The notes below the pieces were generated by a model. That model had not been told where the DNA came from, searched no databases, and saw only the letters and a list, made by a program, of their open reading frames with translations. A stretch of 64,000 nucleotides of DNA from Hadesarchaea archaeon (GTDB taxonomy: Archaea > Hadarchaeota > Hadarchaeia > Hadarchaeales > WYZ-LMO6). Position numbers and translations under genes: made by a program. The number at the start of each line of letters is the position of its first letter. The first letter of the stretch is position 1. This document shows positions 5,274-36,698 of this stretch, in pieces. The DNA lies in NCBI GenBank assembly GCA_029259185.1, contig JAPDJF010000001.1, positions 32,001-96,000 on the forward strand, written 5' to 3'.

Positions 5274-5879
5274 GTGTCCTTGGGGCACGTTAAGTTCTGG
5301 GGCATCAAACCGGAAATAAGAGTACTGGGCCTCGACGACGGTTCTTTTAAACCTAGGGTCAGAGGTAAAGCTTTGGTCATCGGTGTGGTTCTTCGAAGTG
5401 GGCGCATGCTCGAGGGAGTGATGAGCACAAGTGTCGAGATAGATGGTACAGATGCTACTGGGAAGGTGATTGAAATGGTCAATCGGAGTAGACACAAGCC
5501 TCAACTGAGGGTCATCATGAGCGAGGGAATAACGCTTGCCGGATTCAACGTCTTGGATTTGGGAGAGATATTCAGACAGACGGGGTTGCCCATGATCGTA
5601 GTGACACGCAAGAAACCCAACATGTTGGAGGTAAAAAAAGCCTTAAAGCACCTCCCCTGCTGGCGCGAGCGATGGAGGATGATGAAAGCGGCTGGAAAGG
5701 TATACCCCGTGAGTTTCAGGGGAAGAAAGATCTACATGCAGTTGGCCGGCATACGGAGGGAGGATGCTGAAAAGATTTTAACCATCACGACCACGCACGG
5801 GGTGATGCCTGAACCTCTCCGGGTTGCTCACCTCATCGCCACTGGCATGACGAGGGGGGAAAGTGTAGGGAGGGTCTGA
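5274..5879 (+). CDS. DUF99 family protein (endonuclease V-like)
   Basis: RVLGLDDG, DGTDAT, GIT.AGFN and PEPLRVAHLIA motifs. Confidence 0.9.
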   Translation: MSLGHVKFWGIKPEIRVLGLDDGSFKPRVRGKALVIGVVLRSGRMLEGVMSTSVEIDGTDATGKVIEMVNRSRHKPQLRVIMSEGITLAGFNVLDLGEIFRQTGLPMIVVTRKKPNMLEVKKALKHLPCWRERWRMMKAAGKVYPVSFRGRKIYMQLAGIRREDAEKILTITTTHGVMPEPLRVAHLIATGMTRGESVGRV

Positions 5880-5880
5880 G

Positions 5881-6432
5881 ATGGGGGGGCGGAAAGGGAT
5901 CAAGAGAGTTTTCATCCCACTTGTGAAGAACGATTTTATCTATGAGGTACTTTCCTTCTTTCTTTGCATCGGTATCTTGTACTTTTCCCATCAGGGAATC
6001 CTGATGTTGGCCCTGGACTGCGATACCCCCCTCATGCCTGTCATCTCGAATAGCATGCAACACCACAGCGAGAGCTGGAAAGTACCATACGAGCAGATGG
6101 GTTATGACCCCTCCCAGTTTCCGTTTCAGGGGGGATTCGAGAGGGGCGATCTTCTTGTGATAAAGGGTGTAGATTCACCTAGTGAGATATCGGTCGGAGA
6201 TGTGGTGGTATACCAGCGAGTGCCGGGTACGATACCGGTGGTGCATAGGGTGCTATCGAAGTCAGAAGACGGACAGATCATCGTCCTGAAAGGGGATGCG
6301 AATTCGAGTCCGGATCCGAGCATATCTTTCGAGATGGTTAGGGGAAAGGTGATATTGGCAATCCCTAACCTCGGTTGGTTCTCTATATCAGTTTGGAAGT
6401 ACAGATGGCTTTGCACAAAAATTAGCCCCTGA
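5881..6432 (+). CDS. Signal peptidase I (Sec11-type); last 8 aa derive from the inserted element
   Basis: S.SM, RGDL, GDVVVY, VVHRV and KGDAN motifs plus transmembrane segments. The native stop TGA is split by the insertion at 6408. Confidence 0.9.
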   Translation: MGGRKGIKRVFIPLVKNDFIYEVLSFFLCIGILYFSHQGILMLALDCDTPLMPVISNSMQHHSESWKVPYEQMGYDPSQFPFQGGFERGDLLVIKGVDSPSEISVGDVVVYQRVPGTIPVVHRVLSKSEDGQIIVLKGDANSSPDPSISFEMVRGKVILAIPNLGWFSISVWKYRWLCTKISP

Positions 6433-7560
6433 GGCCAATTTCCGTGCTTGGGGGCTCGGAGTCCCCCTCAAGGGCCGAAAGCCCTACGGCCCCGTCCCTG
6501 AGCCAGTGGCCCAGGAACCTCTCTCCAATGTTTATGGCTCCGTTGAGGTCGGCGTTGTACTCGAGGCCACACGAGGGACATTTGAAGAAGCCTTGAGAGA
6601 CCCTTCGTCCTTCGTTTCCGCAGCGGTGGCACGTTCGGCTGGTGTACGCCTCGCCGGCGTGCACCACGGGGATCCCCTCCCAGAGAGCCTTGTACTCGAT
6701 GTACCTTGACAGCCGGTGGTGGGGCATCGAGTGCACGATGCGCCTGAACCTCCGCCCCTTTGCCCGCTTGCGGATTCCCTTCAGATCTCCTATCACGATA
6801 ACCGAGTTCCGCTCCTTAGCTTCGCTGACGATAGCCCTTGAGATCTTGTGGCACAGGTCGTCTATTCGCCGGCGCTCCGTTCTGCCTATCCGCTTGATCA
6901 CCCGCAGTAGCTTGCGCTCGCCGAGTCGCTTTCGGAGCCAAGCGTAGTGGCGCCTTATCCCCCTTGCTTCCTTCCCGTAGAGCTTGGGGGAGGTGATGTT
7001 GGCCTCCTTCTGCAGCGCCACAGACGCCGCGAGAAAGCGCTCCCCCAAGTCCACTGCGAGGACGCCGGAGGGACGCATCGGCTTGACCCTACGCTTGACC
7101 GTGAGGTGGAGGAAGAACCTCCCGTTGCGGTGGACGAGCTGTGAGTCGGAGATCTCAACCCTACCCGAGGAGAGAAGCTCCTCGTGGGAGCGCCACATCC
7201 GCAGCGGGCACCAGATGCGCCCGCCGGGGGTTGAAACGGATACGAAAAACCTGGCGAACCTGTTTCCGGTGTCGGTGAGCTTGAATGAGTCCTTATCGAT
7301 GAGGATGGGAGCCTTCCGCCTGTCCCCGGCCTTCCAAGCTAAAGCACGGCAGTAGTAGGAGGGCAACCTCGTTTGCTCTCTCAGAGTCCGGTAGTCCCTC
7401 TCAAGGGCCTGGGCGCGATCCCACTCGGCTTGGAGGTCCTCCAGAAGCTTGCGCTTGAACCGGGTGAGGCCGTAGAGTTCAGCCCTTATCGTCTTGGAGA
7501 CCAACATCGAACGTGGTCTGTCGGAACCATTTTAAGTTTTCCGGTATTTTTGTGCAAAGC
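6408..7560 (-). mobile_element. TIR-bounded TnpB-only element, full-length copy (1153 bp)
   Basis: Perfect 15-bp TIR GCTTTGCACAAAAAT; direct repeat AGTACAGATG at 6398-6407 and 7562-7571; single tnpB ORF. Confidence 0.92.
6422..7507 (-). CDS. tnpB: TnpB RNA-guided nuclease (361 aa, rearranged RuvC-II)
   Basis: RuvC-I AVDLG; RuvC-II IVIGDL with a downstream GEAYTS; CHRC...CPSC zinc finger; RuvC-III NADLNGAINI. Confidence 0.95.
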   Translation of the reverse strand: MLVSKTIRAELYGLTRFKRKLLEDLQAEWDRAQALERDYRTLREQTRLPSYYCRALAWKAGDRRKAPILIDKDSFKLTDTGNRFARFFVSVSTPGGRIWCPLRMWRSHEELLSSGRVEISDSQLVHRNGRFFLHLTVKRRVKPMRPSGVLAVDLGERFLAASVALQKEANITSPKLYGKEARGIRRHYAWLRKRLGERKLLRVIKRIGRTERRRIDDLCHKISRAIVSEAKERNSVIVIGDLKGIRKRAKGRRFRRIVHSMPHHRLSRYIEYKALWEGIPVVHAGEAYTSRTCHRCGNEGRRVSQGFFKCPSCGLEYNADLNGAINIGERFLGHWLRDGAVGLSALEGDSEPPSTEIGLRG

Positions 7561-7619
7561 GAGTACAGATGAAAGATTTATTGGTACCCAAGTGAGTAGA
7601 TTTAGCTTGGAGGCAGGCG

Positions 7620-7940
7620 ATGAGGTTCTGCAAGAAATGTGGTGGTCTGATGGTTCCCAAGAAGAGTGGGGGAAAGAACGTATTGCTTTGTGAGATGTGT
7701 GGAGAGACGGAGGAGGCCGATAGCTCCGGCTACACGTTGGTTCGAAAAGTTGAGGAAAAAGCGGAAGTGGTGGTGATTGAGAATGAGCCTTCTACCTTGC
7801 CGACCACACGCGCCAAGTGTACTAAATGTGGGAATGACAAAGCGTATTGGTGGATGAGACAGACGAGGAGTGCGGACGAGCCCTCTACTCGATTCTACAG
7901 GTGTACCAAGTGCGGGAATACATGGAGGGAATACGCATAG
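7620..7940 (+). CDS. tfs: Transcription elongation factor TFS
   Basis: Two zinc ribbons and the catalytic QTRSADEP loop. Confidence 0.95.
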   Translation: MRFCKKCGGLMVPKKSGGKNVLLCEMCGETEEADSSGYTLVRKVEEKAEVVVIENEPSTLPTTRAKCTKCGNDKAYWWMRQTRSADEPSTRFYRCTKCGNTWREYA

Positions 7941-8315
7941 GTGGTTCAGGTGGATGAGTTTCAGCCCCGAAGGAAAGTGGCCAAACCGAGACGAATTTCG
8001 GAAATAAGGGTGGGGGAGGAGTTCGTGAGGGTCACCGGGTGTGTCGCCTACAAGAAGAACAGCGAGATAGTCCTAGATGACGGATCCGGGATGCTCACGG
8101 TTTTTTCAGACGATTCTGGGATGTTCCGCGATGTCGATATAGGCTCGAAGATAAGGGTTTTCGGCACGCCGTTAATAACGGAGGGTGGGCAAGAGCTTAA
8201 GGCGGAGATAGTTCAAAAGGTGGACGGGCTGGATCTCCAGCTCCTCGAAAAAGTTATGGAGGAAGTAAAAAAATTCGAGTCAGAAGTGAAGGGGGAAGAG
8301 AGTGTTCAGAGCTAG
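7941..8315 (+). CDS. OB-fold protein, RPA small-subunit-like
   Basis: VRVTG.V...LDDGSG OB fold with a C-terminal helix, next to PCNA. Confidence 0.75.
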   Translation: MVQVDEFQPRRKVAKPRRISEIRVGEEFVRVTGCVAYKKNSEIVLDDGSGMLTVFSDDSGMFRDVDIGSKIRVFGTPLITEGGQELKAEIVQKVDGLDLQLLEKVMEEVKKFESEVKGEESVQS

Positions 8316-9057
8316 AATGTCGGATACGAGGGTTTGGAAAACTTGCGTCGGAGCGATAGTGAATCTGATCGAGGAAGCGGCTTTTAAATTCACGGGGGAA
8401 GGGGTCAGGATGAGAGCTATGGACCCCTCCCATGTCGCTTTGGTGGATTTCGACCTTCCCGCAAAGGCATTCGATGAGTACGAGGTTTCAAAGCCTGTGG
8501 TTCTGGGTATCGTGCTGGTCGAACTTAACAAGATAATGTCTAGGGCGAAGAGTGAGGATTCCCTGATATTGGAATTTGAGGAGGAGAAAAACCGTCTATC
8601 ACTCGTCTTCAAAGGTAGATCCAGCAGGAGATTCAATCTTCCTCTCGTCGACATAAAAGAGAGCGAGCTTCCCGAGCCCAAACTCCAGTTCGGTGCCACC
8701 GTCCGGGTTCTAGGCGAGATAATTCAGGATGGACTCCGCGATGCCGAGGTGGTTGGGGATACCGTACGCTTCGAGGCTAACGAATCTGGATTCTTCATGT
8801 ACTCGGAGGGGGACGGAAGATCGGTTGAACTCAAACTCGAAAAGGGTAGTGAAGCACTGGCGAAGTTGGAGGTGCGACAACCATCGAGAGCGATGTTCAA
8901 CGTGAAGTATCTTTCTGACATGCTTAAAGCCGCAGACATGAAGGATTTCATAACGATAAATCTGGGAACGGATCTCCCAATAAAACTCGATTTCCCAATA
9001 GCGGGTGGGGAAGGGAGGCTCAGCTTCATCCTAGCTCCACGGATCGAGTCAGAGTGA
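8302..9057 (+). CDS. pcn: DNA sliding clamp PCNA
   Basis: RAMDPSHVALVD and C-terminal LAPRIE. Confidence 0.98.
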   Translation: MFRARMSDTRVWKTCVGAIVNLIEEAAFKFTGEGVRMRAMDPSHVALVDFDLPAKAFDEYEVSKPVVLGIVLVELNKIMSRAKSEDSLILEFEEEKNRLSLVFKGRSSRRFNLPLVDIKESELPEPKLQFGATVRVLGEIIQDGLRDAEVVGDTVRFEANESGFFMYSEGDGRSVELKLEKGSEALAKLEVRQPSRAMFNVKYLSDMLKAADMKDFITINLGTDLPIKLDFPIAGGEGRLSFILAPRIESE

Positions 9058-17338: not shown

Positions 17339-17388
17339 AGCTTCACATAGTCTTCCACTCGTTCAAAATAAGTCTTTCAGAGACCTCT

Positions 17389-17975
17389 GCTTTGCACAAA
17401 AATACCGGAAAACTTAAAATGGTTCCGACAGACCACGTTCGATGTTGGCCTCCAAGACGATAAGAGCTGAACTCTACGGCCTCACCCGGTTCAAGCGCAA
17501 GCTTCTGGAGGACCTCCAAGCCGAGTGGGATCGCGCCCAAGCCCCTTGAGAGGCCGGACTCTGAGAGAGCAAACGAGGCTGCCCTCCTACTACTGCCGTG
17601 CTTTAGCCTGGAAGGCTGGCGATGGGCGGAAGGCTCCCATCCTCATCGATAAGGACTCATTCAAGCTCACCGACACCGGAAACAGTTCGCCAGGTTTTTC
17701 GTATCCGTTTCAACCCCCGGCGGGTGTACGCCGGCGAGGCATACACCAGCAAATGTGCCACTGGAAACGAAGGACGAAGGGTCTCTCAAGGCTTCTTCAA
17801 ATGCTCGTCGTGTGGGCTGGAGTACAACGCCGACCTCAACGGAGCCATAAATATTGGAGAGGGGTTCCTGGGCCACTGGCTCAGGGACGAAGGCGTGGGG
17901 CTTTCGGCCCTTAGGGGATCCCGAGCCCCCAAGCACGGAAATTGGCCTCAGGGGCTAATTTTTTTTGTGCAGAGC
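17389..17975 (+). mobile_element. Internally deleted copy of the TIR-TnpB element (587 bp)
   Basis: Ends GCTTTGCACAAAAA and TTTTTGTGCAGAGC; perfect 11-bp TSD CAGAGACCTCT (17378-17388, 17976-17986); near-identical to both ends of 6408-7560. Confidence 0.93.
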
Positions 17976-17990
17976 CAGAGACCTCTCAGG

Positions 17991-35485: not shown

Positions 35486-35896
35486 TCATCCTTTGGATAG
35501 TTCCTTCTCTATGGCCTTTATGAATTCCTTAGCAGAATCCATTGCTCCTTTAGCATCGCTTCGTTTGACAGATAATGTGGGGTCACTATAGATGGCTGAG
35601 ACGAATCGATTGAACTGATCTAAAGAGGTCACGTGCTCTCTCAGCTCAGGGTATCGACACCGAAGATACTCGATCATCGTTTGTCTTTCAACCTCGCTCA
35701 CCCCATTTCTGAAGAGGAGAGCCCTAGCGGCATGAAACATGGAGATGAGCGAGGCCACCACGGCCATGTCCCGGTATCCTAGAGCATTGCTATCTTTCGC
35801 CCGCTTTAACCATTCTTTTGCAACTTTCAGGGATCTCATACTCATGTTCAACGGCAAAACCAATTTGAATTGCGTCTCAAAATTTAAAAATTTCAA
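35486..35896 (-). CDS. HEPN-domain protein (start likely near 35845)
   Basis: A...L.RA...SMFHAARALL...G pattern and A..A...A.EF C-terminus. Confidence 0.8.
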   Translation of the reverse strand: MKFLNFETQFKLVLPLNMSMRSLKVAKEWLKRAKDSNALGYRDMAVVASLISMFHAARALLFRNGVSEVERQTMIEYLRCRYPELREHVTSLDQFNRFVSAIYSDPTLSVKRSDAKGAMDSAKEFIKAIEKELSKG

Positions 35897-35904
35897 ACTT
35901 TGGC

Positions 35905-36339
35905 GCTTTGCACAAAAATACCGGAAAACTTAAAATGGTTCCGACAGACCACGTTCGATGTTGGCCTCCAAGACGATAAGAGCTGAACTCTACGGCCTCA
36001 CCCGGTTCAAGCGCAAGCTTCTGGAGGACCTCCAAGCCGAGTGGGATCGCGCCCAGGCCCTTGAGAGGGACTACCGGACTCTGAGAGAGCAAACGAGGCA
36101 TCCACCAGCCGAACGTGCCACCGCTGCGGAAACGAAGGACGAAGGGTCTCTCAAGGCTTCTTCAAATGCTCGTCGTGTGGGCTGGAGTACAACGCCGACC
36201 TCAACGGAGCCATAAATATTGGAGAGGGGTTCTTGGGCCACTGGCTCAGGGACGGGGGCGTGGGGCTTTCGCCCCTTTAGGGGATCCCGAGCCTCCAAGC
36301 ACAAAAATTGGCCTCAGGGCTGATTTTTTTGTGCAGAGC
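35905..36339 (+). mobile_element. Internally deleted copy of the TIR-TnpB element (435 bp)
   Basis: Same TIR ends; CAAACTTTGG on both flanks (35894-35903, 36340-36349); deletion joint at CGAGGC microhomology. Confidence 0.92.
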
Positions 36340-36347
36340 CAAACTTT

Positions 36348-36698
36348 GGTTCCGTAAAAGTTTTTGAGGTAATCTCATTAATCTCGCTGGTCAAGGCAGG
36401 TGGGTGCGACAAAATCCCATGAGGTGATGTGAATGAGCCCCAGAACAAACCCAAATGCCCGCCCCTGCGGAGCAGGGTTCTTGGAAGGTCGGCTTAAGCC
36501 AAAGCAAGAGGCGAGTCTACAAGTGTAGTTCTTGTAGAAAGAGGTTCAATGAGCGGGTGGGAACGCCGTTCCATGGACTGCACTTCCCAGAGGGGGGCCG
36601 GGTATTTCACGTAACAGGTGCGCCCCATCAGGGGCTGTCGAGTTACGATGTGGGTGCACTGTGACCTGAAATTTTGCTCCAAGCTTTTTTACGGAACC
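36348..36698 (+). mobile_element. IS6-like internally deleted element (351 bp)
   Basis: 12-bp TIR GGTTCCGTAAAA; 8-bp TSD CAAACTTT (36340-36347, 36699-36706); transposase remnants YKCSSCRKRFNERVGTPF and PHQGL. Confidence 0.82.

Follow-up and report, generated by a model that had tools for sequence, protein, structure and literature searches.

The locus described here raises the question of how a tnpB gene lying alone between inverted repeats came to be inserted into an archaeal chromosome, and of what decides which of its insertions last. It is found in a 64,000-nucleotide stretch of a Hadesarchaea archaeon (contig JAPDJF010000001.1, positions 32,001 to 96,000; G000:C1:32001-96000), referred to below as the window. 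The host is a deep-sea-vent archaeon of the phylum Hadarchaeota, and its own assembly (G000) comprises 1.27 Mb in 54 contigs at 95% completeness. The window element and its family, termed fam1, probably represent a non-autonomous transposon made of tnpB and a predicted guide-RNA scaffold between IS5-type ends, which was inserted in trans by a DDE transposase with a 9-bp staggered cut, the motif TTT-N next to the insertion being taken as the transposon-adjacent motif (TAM). The parts of the full-length element are listed with their window positions; LE stands for the side of the tnpB 5′ end and RE for the side of the tnpB 3′ end.

6407..7561, minus strand: full-length tnpB-only fam1 element, 1155 bp when both terminal Cs (as read in tnpB sense) are counted; LE at 7561, RE at 6407
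6408..6422, minus strand: RE terminal inverted repeat (TIR), in sense ...ATTTTTGTGCAAAGC followed by C (6407)
7546..7560, minus strand: LE TIR, in sense GCTTTGCACAAAAAT, with C before it at 7561
6422..7507, minus strand: tnpB, 361 aa, reading from 7507 to 6422, with the stop codon inside the RE repeat
6398..6406: RE-side copy of the 9-bp duplication, AGTACAGAT on the plus strand
7562..7570: LE-side copy of the 9-bp duplication

A preceding sequence-only reading had described a unit of 1153 bp (6408-7560) filled by tnpB and bounded by perfect 15-bp inverted repeats, and a scan with the 15-mer, the open reading frame (ORF) and profile matches confirm this description. The 15-mer GCTTTGCACAAAAAT occurs at six window sites with at most 2 mismatches (0.04 expected; six sites reached in 0 of 100 shuffles). 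Both sites of the full-length unit (6408/7546) are perfect, and in the pairs 17389/17961 and 35905/36325 the second arm carries 2 mismatches. The 361-aa product is a TnpB protein according to Pfam (Cas12f1-like_TNB, E 2.6e-23; OrfB_IS605, E 1.5e-6) and scores 170 bits with NCBIfam guided_TnpB (cut-off 100). All 12 aligned relatives retain D153, the CxxC...CxxC finger and D320 (NADLN), and the RuvC-II position reads IGDL, with Gly in place of the canonical Glu. The same Gly characterizes the RIIr-5 clade, for which the relevant passage of Altae-Tran et al. (2023, PNAS; PMC10691335) proposes that another Glu serves instead.

Two internally deleted copies are present in the same window.

17388..17976, plus strand: copy 2, 589 bp, LE at left
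17379-17387 and 17977-17985: duplication of copy 2, AGAGACCTC, with TTT at 17375-17377
35904..36340, plus strand: copy 3, 437 bp, LE at left
35895-35903 and 36341-36349: duplication of copy 3, AAACTTTGG, with TTT at 35891-35893

The direct repeats around copies 1 to 3 had been read as 10 bp (AGTACAGATG), 11 bp (CAGAGACCTCT) and 10 bp (CAAACTTTGG). Their presence was verified, whereas their length was revised to 9 bp. For this purpose all copies were oriented by tnpB, and the 9 bases outside the terminal bases were compared in the 15 copies that have both ends. These bases agree at 9/9 positions in seven copies, including all three of the window, at 8/9 in one, at 6/9 in one, at 5/9 in one (an indel) and at no more than 4/9 in five; among 210 non-cognate flank pairs none exceeds 7/9. 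RE is followed by C in 18/18 fam1 copies, the LE core is preceded by C in 15/19 and by T in three, and the next base outward of the 9-mer agrees only at about chance level on either side. As only the central 9 bases match consistently, the duplication measures 9 bp and the outer matches are due to chance agreement with the terminal bases of the element. Copies 2 and 3, each with its own, different duplication, are independent insertions, as had been concluded before.

Removal of the element and one duplicate restores the stop codon of the adjoining signal-peptidase ORF, which then ends in ...SVWKYR*. This had been noticed from the window itself and agrees with the orthologues, which end 2-3 residues past SVW in 5/5 genomes of the same family. 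In these five genomes both flanking genes are adjacent and free of the element, at a DNA identity (64-70%) too low for an exact empty site.

A BLAST search of the genome with the unit, similar to the search with its ends suggested together with the first description, gave matches on 18 of the 54 contigs, with about 20 further copies or mini-derivatives. Three fam1 copies are full-length, namely that on C1 (1153 bp) and those on C15 (1125 bp, 91% identical) and C4 (1128 bp, 90% identical); the remaining ones are deletion derivatives of 145-725 bp. A tnpB gene free of stops is present only in the window copy, and the C34, C15 and C4 copies contain 2 to 5 stops. In contigs from four public vent or marine runs the depth of the RE end was about 15 times that of the flank (733 vs 47.5; 5476 vs 358), in agreement with the fam1 copy number in the genome. 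Given the identity of 88-92% among the copies and the decayed tnpB genes, fam1 seems stranded and is probably immobile in this genome now.

Which enzyme could have inserted these copies? Mobilization in trans by an enzyme encoded outside the window had been proposed, and this proposal is supported by the finding of the same ends and of 9-bp duplications around or beside IS5-family DDE genes in other Hadarchaeota. With at most 1 mismatch GCTTTGCACAAAAAT is present in 30 of 65 genomes of the order, compared to 0-1 occurrences per genome for the reversed control. Three other elements with fam1-type ends have perfect 9-bp duplications and follow the same one-base-spacer rule; the elements of this kind in other genomes measure 1044 bp (G049), 1462 bp (G046) and 55 bp (G051). 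The element of G046 possesses both ends as well as a 9-bp duplication and encloses the C-terminal remnant of an IS5-family DDE transposase; over 120 aa this remnant shares 68% identity with a 349-aa ORF of G019, which is intact. This ORF matches PF01609 (E 1.2e-17) and the NCBIfam model 'IS5 family transposase' (E 1e-36), the NCBIfam IS5 scores of the associated transposase being 127 and 111 bits (G019: 127), below the curated cut-off of 140. In 6/9 loci with homologous DDE genes a stop codon lies 18-24 nt before a ...GCAAAGCC terminus, and the first 21 nt of the window RE, read inward, are identical to the G019 end at 19/21 positions. A transposase gene between the same TIRs is represented by the remnant in G046; the window contains no gene for such a partner, and none was found for fam1 in the assembly of the host. 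We infer that an IS5-family-type enzyme absent from the host assembly moved fam1.

Members of the IS903 group of the IS5 family produce 9-bp duplications and have ends beginning with GGC, the IS903 repeat itself beginning with GGCTTTGTTG. fam1 resembles this group in its 9-bp duplication, in its termini, which begin with GGCTTTG from the RE side, and in the associated transposase, which is best matched by NCBIfam IS5. It differs in carrying tnpB as cargo in place of the transposase, and the two NCBIfam scores below the cut-off set the enzyme apart as well.

Some further elements share these ends or the transposase domain. The G049 element (L193:1015-2058, on G049:C34; 1044 bp) has a perfect 9-bp duplication, TTTGGGTGA, and instead of tnpB contains an ORF of 226 aa, the product of which has a hydrophobic N-terminus and matches nothing in Pfam. 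Mini-elements of 55 bp (L200:1384-1438) and about 86 bp (L218, oriented, 1942-2027) consist of little beyond two inverted ends and lie exactly 9 nt past the right end of an IS5-family gene, with the same 9-mer on both sides; their insertion was apparently aimed at the edge of an existing element end. In other Hadarchaeota (L196:1446-1520, L189, L195, L190) the motif CTGCACAA(A/T)AATT adjoins a fam1-type terminus in 2-3 repeats at a spacing of about 20-28 nt and may represent subterminal transposase-binding sites. The PF01609 matches of the host genome are an IS1182-like contig, C51, and one degenerate gene, neither with fam1 ends. C51 (1358 bp) consists of one IS1182-like transposase gene (439 aa) with 64.5% G+C, compared to 52% for the genome, and is probably mis-binned DNA from another organism. 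At C15:1838-3888 (L067:353-2403) a degenerate DDE_Tnp_1 gene lies between inverted repeats of 258 nt that are 97% complementary, and both repeats contain the N-terminal portion of a MerR/serine-recombinase gene of the IS607 type.

The closest relative of the window TnpB (63% identity) is encoded in G029, a genome from another family of the same order, and relatives at E 1e-75 or better were found only in G000 and G029, i.e. in 2/66 genomes of the phylum. G029 contains a tnpB-only element of 1177 bp with 20-nt TIRs together with five mini-copies of about 285 bp, and the 9-bp duplications are perfect in 4/6 and match at 8/9 in one. The first 17 TIR bases of this element are those of an insertion sequence (IS) in the genome of our host.

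C4:8346-9533 (L152:1202-2389): apparently intact IS6-like IS, 1188 bp, with the transposase at C4:8474-9352

This IS has an uninterrupted 293-aa transposase, a 26-nt TIR (88% complementary) and a perfect duplication of 9 bp, GATCGTAGC, compared to 8 bp in the classical IS6 family. The transposase matches PF13610 (E 5e-12, above the cut-off) and NCBIfam IS6 (E 6e-27, below the cut-off of that model). Its homologues occur in 9/65 genomes of the order, with the same kind of TIR in other genomes. The same ends on a DDE-encoding element are therefore clearly found for the sister family in G029. Stop-bearing relatives of the IS6-like IS are present in G057 and G058.

More distant TnpB relatives look different. 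Those of G023 (40-45% identity, seven copies) have asymmetric ends, no TIR and no duplication, with TTAAC or TTAT before the left end. As these are canonical IS605-type elements, the inverted-end form of TnpB is derived, and T-rich TAMs run in the TnpB family. Among 49 metagenomic relatives at 40-50% identity with enough flank, TIR and duplication were detected in two, compared to none of the decoys, with thresholds so strict that misses are likely. A single-protein search of a collection of genome contigs yielded only four distant loci. The inverted-end form is thus sporadic.

If a DDE transposase inserted fam1, what marks the sites where its copies are found? The answer is a T run on one side only, shown here for copy 1 with its neighbouring gene.

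7572..7574, minus strand (AAA on the plus strand): one-sided TTT, candidate TAM, one base outside the LE-side duplication; also the expected position of the B recognition element (BRE) of the TFS-like gene
7577..7583: TATA-box-like A/T-rich tract (in sense CAATAAA), with the ATG of the zinc-ribbon gene 37 nt downstream
7620-7940, plus strand: TFIIS/RPB9-type zinc-ribbon (TFS-like) gene, neighbour of copy 1

Counted from the LE core on the tnpB-sense strand, T occupies positions -14, -13 and -12 in 15, 18 and 18 of 19 copies, and exact TTT is present in 15/19 (binomial test on at least 13 of 17, P about 2e-19; three of the 15 TTT copies have one common flank). The distance between the TTT and the LE terminal base is 10 nt, the base after the TTT is never A, and the 9-bp duplicate and the element come next. 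No mirror AAA motif follows the RE-side duplicate in the fam1 copies. TT-T stands at the edge of the duplicate in the G029 copies as well and in copies of a second tnpB-type family of the host, fam2, the ends of which differ. One apparently TTT-less fam1 copy proved to be interrupted by a fam2 element, and without the intruder it reads TTT, 11 nt and LE. The intruder (C23:20793-20805 with C7:48095-48125) is located between the T run and the fam1 LE, 11 nt from LE and in the same orientation, and itself directly follows the same T run.

A second feature of the element that may belong to TnpB is a predicted RNA at its RE.

6407..6520, minus strand: predicted omega-RNA scaffold of four consecutive hairpins, minimum free energy -69.6 kcal/mol, z -3.6

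The last predicted hairpin has a stem of 16 bp, after which the element closes with AAAGCC, and roughly the last 78 nt of the element are kept by all mini-derivatives. No Rfam family was matched on 6300-7700 at E up to 1, and covariation support was absent within fam1, where the variant RE arm GCGC for GUGC is uncompensated in the 5′ arm. In the TnpB systems studied so far the guide derives from read-through at RE into the flank. With the TTT-N just before the duplicate on the side where tnpB starts, an empty allele would read TTT-N plus a guide match.

From this geometry a sequence of events can be proposed. A DDE transposase supplied in trans would make a 9-bp staggered cut and insert the fam1 element. 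An RNA from the last ~110 nt of the element would then read into the flank, so that the guide would consist of the 9-bp duplicate and the downstream DNA. TnpB could cut an element-free allele, which reads TTT-N plus guide match, and recombination with the occupied chromosome copy would restore or spread the element. The occupied site would be spared, as it has either the scaffold or only 9 matching bases and not the combination of TTT-N and guide. Enrichment of TTT-N would then result from better retention of those copies that landed beside it. We further suggest, tentatively and with less than even confidence, that TnpB rather than the transposase decides which DDE-type insertions last, copies at TTT-N being kept by RNA-guided homing and others being lost at the next excision.

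Several observations weigh against insertion by a DDE transposase combined with a TnpB motif. Five of the 15 paired copies have no duplication (at most 4/9). Three of these, mini-copies of 146-306 bp, have the same stretch of about 20 nt outside LE (AAAACTTTTCGAACCTTTAC or a near variant, with nothing common further out), which a DDE cut does not account for. This shared 20-nt stretch (C13:32183-32202, C14:36930-36949 and C23:8811-8830) occurs nowhere else in the host genome, and the RE flank of a fourth copy resembles its 9-mer. The Pfam score of the G046 remnant is 22.7 bits, just below the curated cut-off of 23. A homologue of the IS5-family transposase is missing from the host genome (0 candidates in 54 contigs, 95% complete), and for the intact IS5-family genes only the end beside the C-terminus was found, repeat search and local alignment having detected no matching inverted end upstream. 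Neither an empty site nor an excision joint was seen. Paralogous empty sites were not found within the host genome, and no joint skipping copy 1 appeared for window positions 5400-8600 in the contigs of four public runs (two studies), contigs being prone to drop rare variants; in all of these contigs both flanks run into the element. Furthermore, an outward ATG ORF of at least 70 aa starts 22-77 nt outside LE in 15/18 copies, compared to 5/18 within 80 nt at RE, and an outward gene start lies 44-87 nt from LE in 4/6 copies of G029. Finally, three tnpB-less elements with fam1-type ends have a T-rich left duplication edge at other offsets, which leans towards a preference of the integration step and not of TnpB.

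The outward ORFs and the T-rich edges of the tnpB-less elements, together with the presence of A in 8-15 of 19 copies at positions -23 to -17, would fit another explanation, which we regard as somewhat unlikely, though as a close second. On the opposite strand the TTT may correspond to the BRE of the neighbouring gene and the A-rich tract to its TATA box, and the integration machinery would choose sites at a constant spacing from where a promoter begins upstream, for example by reading DNA bent by TBP/TFB, with TnpB as a passenger in site choice. However, the one-sided TTT is found with IS5-like ends and with IS6-like ends (G029, fam2), where the common factor is TnpB and not the transposase, and the intact IS6-like IS has no TTT beside its duplication on either side (n=1). 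In addition, the ORF calls are mechanical and the promoters are predicted. As the mark occurs with two transposase families and two TnpB clades, an interpretation of TTT-N as TAM would have a slight edge over the promoter edge, and both can be true.

Two further mobile elements of the host genome bear on the remaining explanations, the casposon and fam2.

C13:17964-27531 (L065:3965-13532): casposon, 9.6 kb; TIRs of 210 nt, 99% complementary; duplication of 15 bp, AGTTAAGGTTTATAT
fam2: second tnpB-type family, 22-nt TIR GGTTCTGTTGCGTAATCGGGAG, 8-bp duplications GTGGTAAA and TACCAAGC
C7:48125-48251, C22:1-127 and C28:1-127: fam2 LE at contig ends
C7:1-127, C16:37349-37475 and C23:20805-20931: fam2 RE

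fam2 shows a DRDxxxxxNI motif near the 3′ end, its 127-nt ends are 100% identical at no fewer than three sites, and its interior is missing from the assembly; it is probably a currently active family. Smaller fam2 derivatives are located at C8:41470-41997, C13:6045-6163 and C12:36578-36890. A decayed fam1-related tnpB fragment (C13:17184-17913) abuts the left end of the casposon. The Y1 TnpA domain PF01797 gave four matches in the host genome, two above the cut-off, of which one contains a TAA stop and the other is partial, and two weak ones at contig ends, and the IS607-type serine recombinase is present as fragments.

That the intact IS6-like transposase (C4:8474-9352) moves fam1 through loose recognition of ends starting with GG(C/T)T(T/C)T is improbable. 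It is the only uninterrupted DDE transposase with recognizable ends found in the assembly, it also leaves a 9-bp duplication, and its ends are common to the G029 tnpB element. Its TIR GGTTCTCTTCGGAAC and the fam1 end GGCTTTGCACAAAAA, however, agree at only ~7/15 positions, whereas the fam1 ends are far closer to those associated with the IS5 family (19/21). Moreover, fam1 looks inactive (88-92% alike, decayed tnpB), in contrast to fam2 with its IS6-like, fully identical ends at three or more sites.

Very improbable is an IS200/IS605 element of the IS1341 group, moved by Y1 TnpA in the 'peel and paste' mode, with flanking repeats that reflect target-site coincidences. It would agree with the TnpB homology, the Y1 TnpA remnants of the host genome, the subterminal hairpin at RE and the canonical IS605-type relatives at 40-45% identity. 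Against it stand the copy-specific 9-bp duplications in 8/15 copies, which were never seen in non-cognate pairs, the 15-bp inverted ends, the occurrence of the same ends beside DDE genes and the failure to find an intact TnpA in the host genome; in addition the family definition, as worded in the passages concerned of PMC4810608 and PMC13565253, excludes TIRs and duplications.

The combination of TIRs and duplications had been attributed to DDE or to Cas1-type integration. The DDE part of this statement is supported by the same ends and the duplication at IS5-family genes, and the Cas1 part is not. The genome does encode one Cas1 (C13:24162-24986) inside the casposon, and the fam1-related tnpB fragment lies directly beside its left TIR. 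Yet the ends of the casposon (TTTTTACATTATTTGC...) bear no relation to those of fam1, and the casposon duplicates 15 bp and not 9 bp, so that integration of fam1 in trans by the casposase was rejected and seems to us barely credible.

How does fam1 relate to known systems? The first description named IS200/IS605 and IS607 as the usual hosts of TnpB; the premise that TnpB is known from these alone has been out of date since DDE-associated TnpBs were published in 2023 (PMC10691335). That IS200/IS605 and IS607 lack TIRs and duplications agrees with the passages on these families in PMC4810608, PMC3119063 and PMC13565253. Altae-Tran et al. (PMC10691335) describe, in the part of their article on these proteins, TnpBs together with DDE transposases and inverted ends in all six branches (DDE-1 to DDE-6). 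They also describe solo TnpBs whose ends resemble those of elements with a transposase, which implies mobilization in trans; for DDE-5 the supplement text mentions the short motif TA, located 8 bp upstream of the end. As DDE partner the text of that article names IS630, and the corresponding passage of a 2026 review (PMC13565253) names ISL2, IS630 and IS1031. A paper on an IS5 partner with 9-bp duplication or on an IS6 partner of TnpB was not found, the figure and supplements likely to list the partners lying outside the material covered. fam1 is thus a further case of a partnership already known in kind. Like the DDE-associated TnpBs as described in that text it has tnpB between inverted repeats, with the tnpB 3′ end 15 nt from the transposon end, compared to at most 250 bp there. 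Unlike in those systems, no element with both transposase and tnpB was found, and the probable partner is of the IS5 family or, in G029, IS6-like.

With the IS1341 group of IS200/IS605 fam1 shares a homologous TnpB, a guide-RNA scaffold at the 3′ end that overlaps the tnpB end (predicted here) and abundant deletion derivatives (cf. palindrome-associated transposable elements, PATEs). Elements of IS200/IS605 lack inverted ends as well as a duplication, and their insertion point is immediately 3′ of a TAM of 4-5 nt, as stated in the respective passages of PMC4810608, PMC3119063 and PMC13565253. In contrast, fam1 has 15-bp TIRs and a 9-bp duplication, its T-rich motif is parted from LE by the duplicate, and a strong hairpin is present only at RE. 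A likeness in TIR/duplication cargo exists to eukaryotic DNA transposons bearing Fanzor, for which Bao and Jurka (2013; PMC3627910) report, in the text concerned, TnpB-family cargo in transposons with TIRs and target-site duplications from unrelated superfamilies; the Fanzor carriers have eukaryotic or viral hosts, whereas fam1 has an archaeal host and a TnpB of ordinary size. New here is the one-sided TTT, one base before the duplication on the side of the tnpB start, in 15/19 copies.

fam1 provides a clean archaeal case of what has already been published, namely that TnpB is not bound to the IS200/IS605 and IS607 families, in a host phylum, the Hadarchaeota, whose mobile elements have hardly been described. 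Here tnpB has replaced the transposase inside IS5-type ends, and in the sister lineage inside IS6-type ends. The geometry, in which the duplication made by the DDE enzyme would form the first 9 guide bases and the one-sided TTT-N stands where a TAM must be, leads to a testable account of how a homing nuclease could serve a transposon that leaves duplications, and it supplies a predicted TAM and a predicted guide-RNA scaffold for a compact (361-aa) TnpB of a thermophile. Should the bias towards promoter edges be caused by integration, it would constitute a separate finding on target choice. If TnpB does decide which insertions last, surviving copies, sharing one orientation, would gather where host promoters begin upstream, as TTT-N on that strand would be the archaeal BRE. 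The same one-sided mark is seen with two unrelated transposase families, IS5-like and IS6-like, and in two TnpB clades of the phylum.

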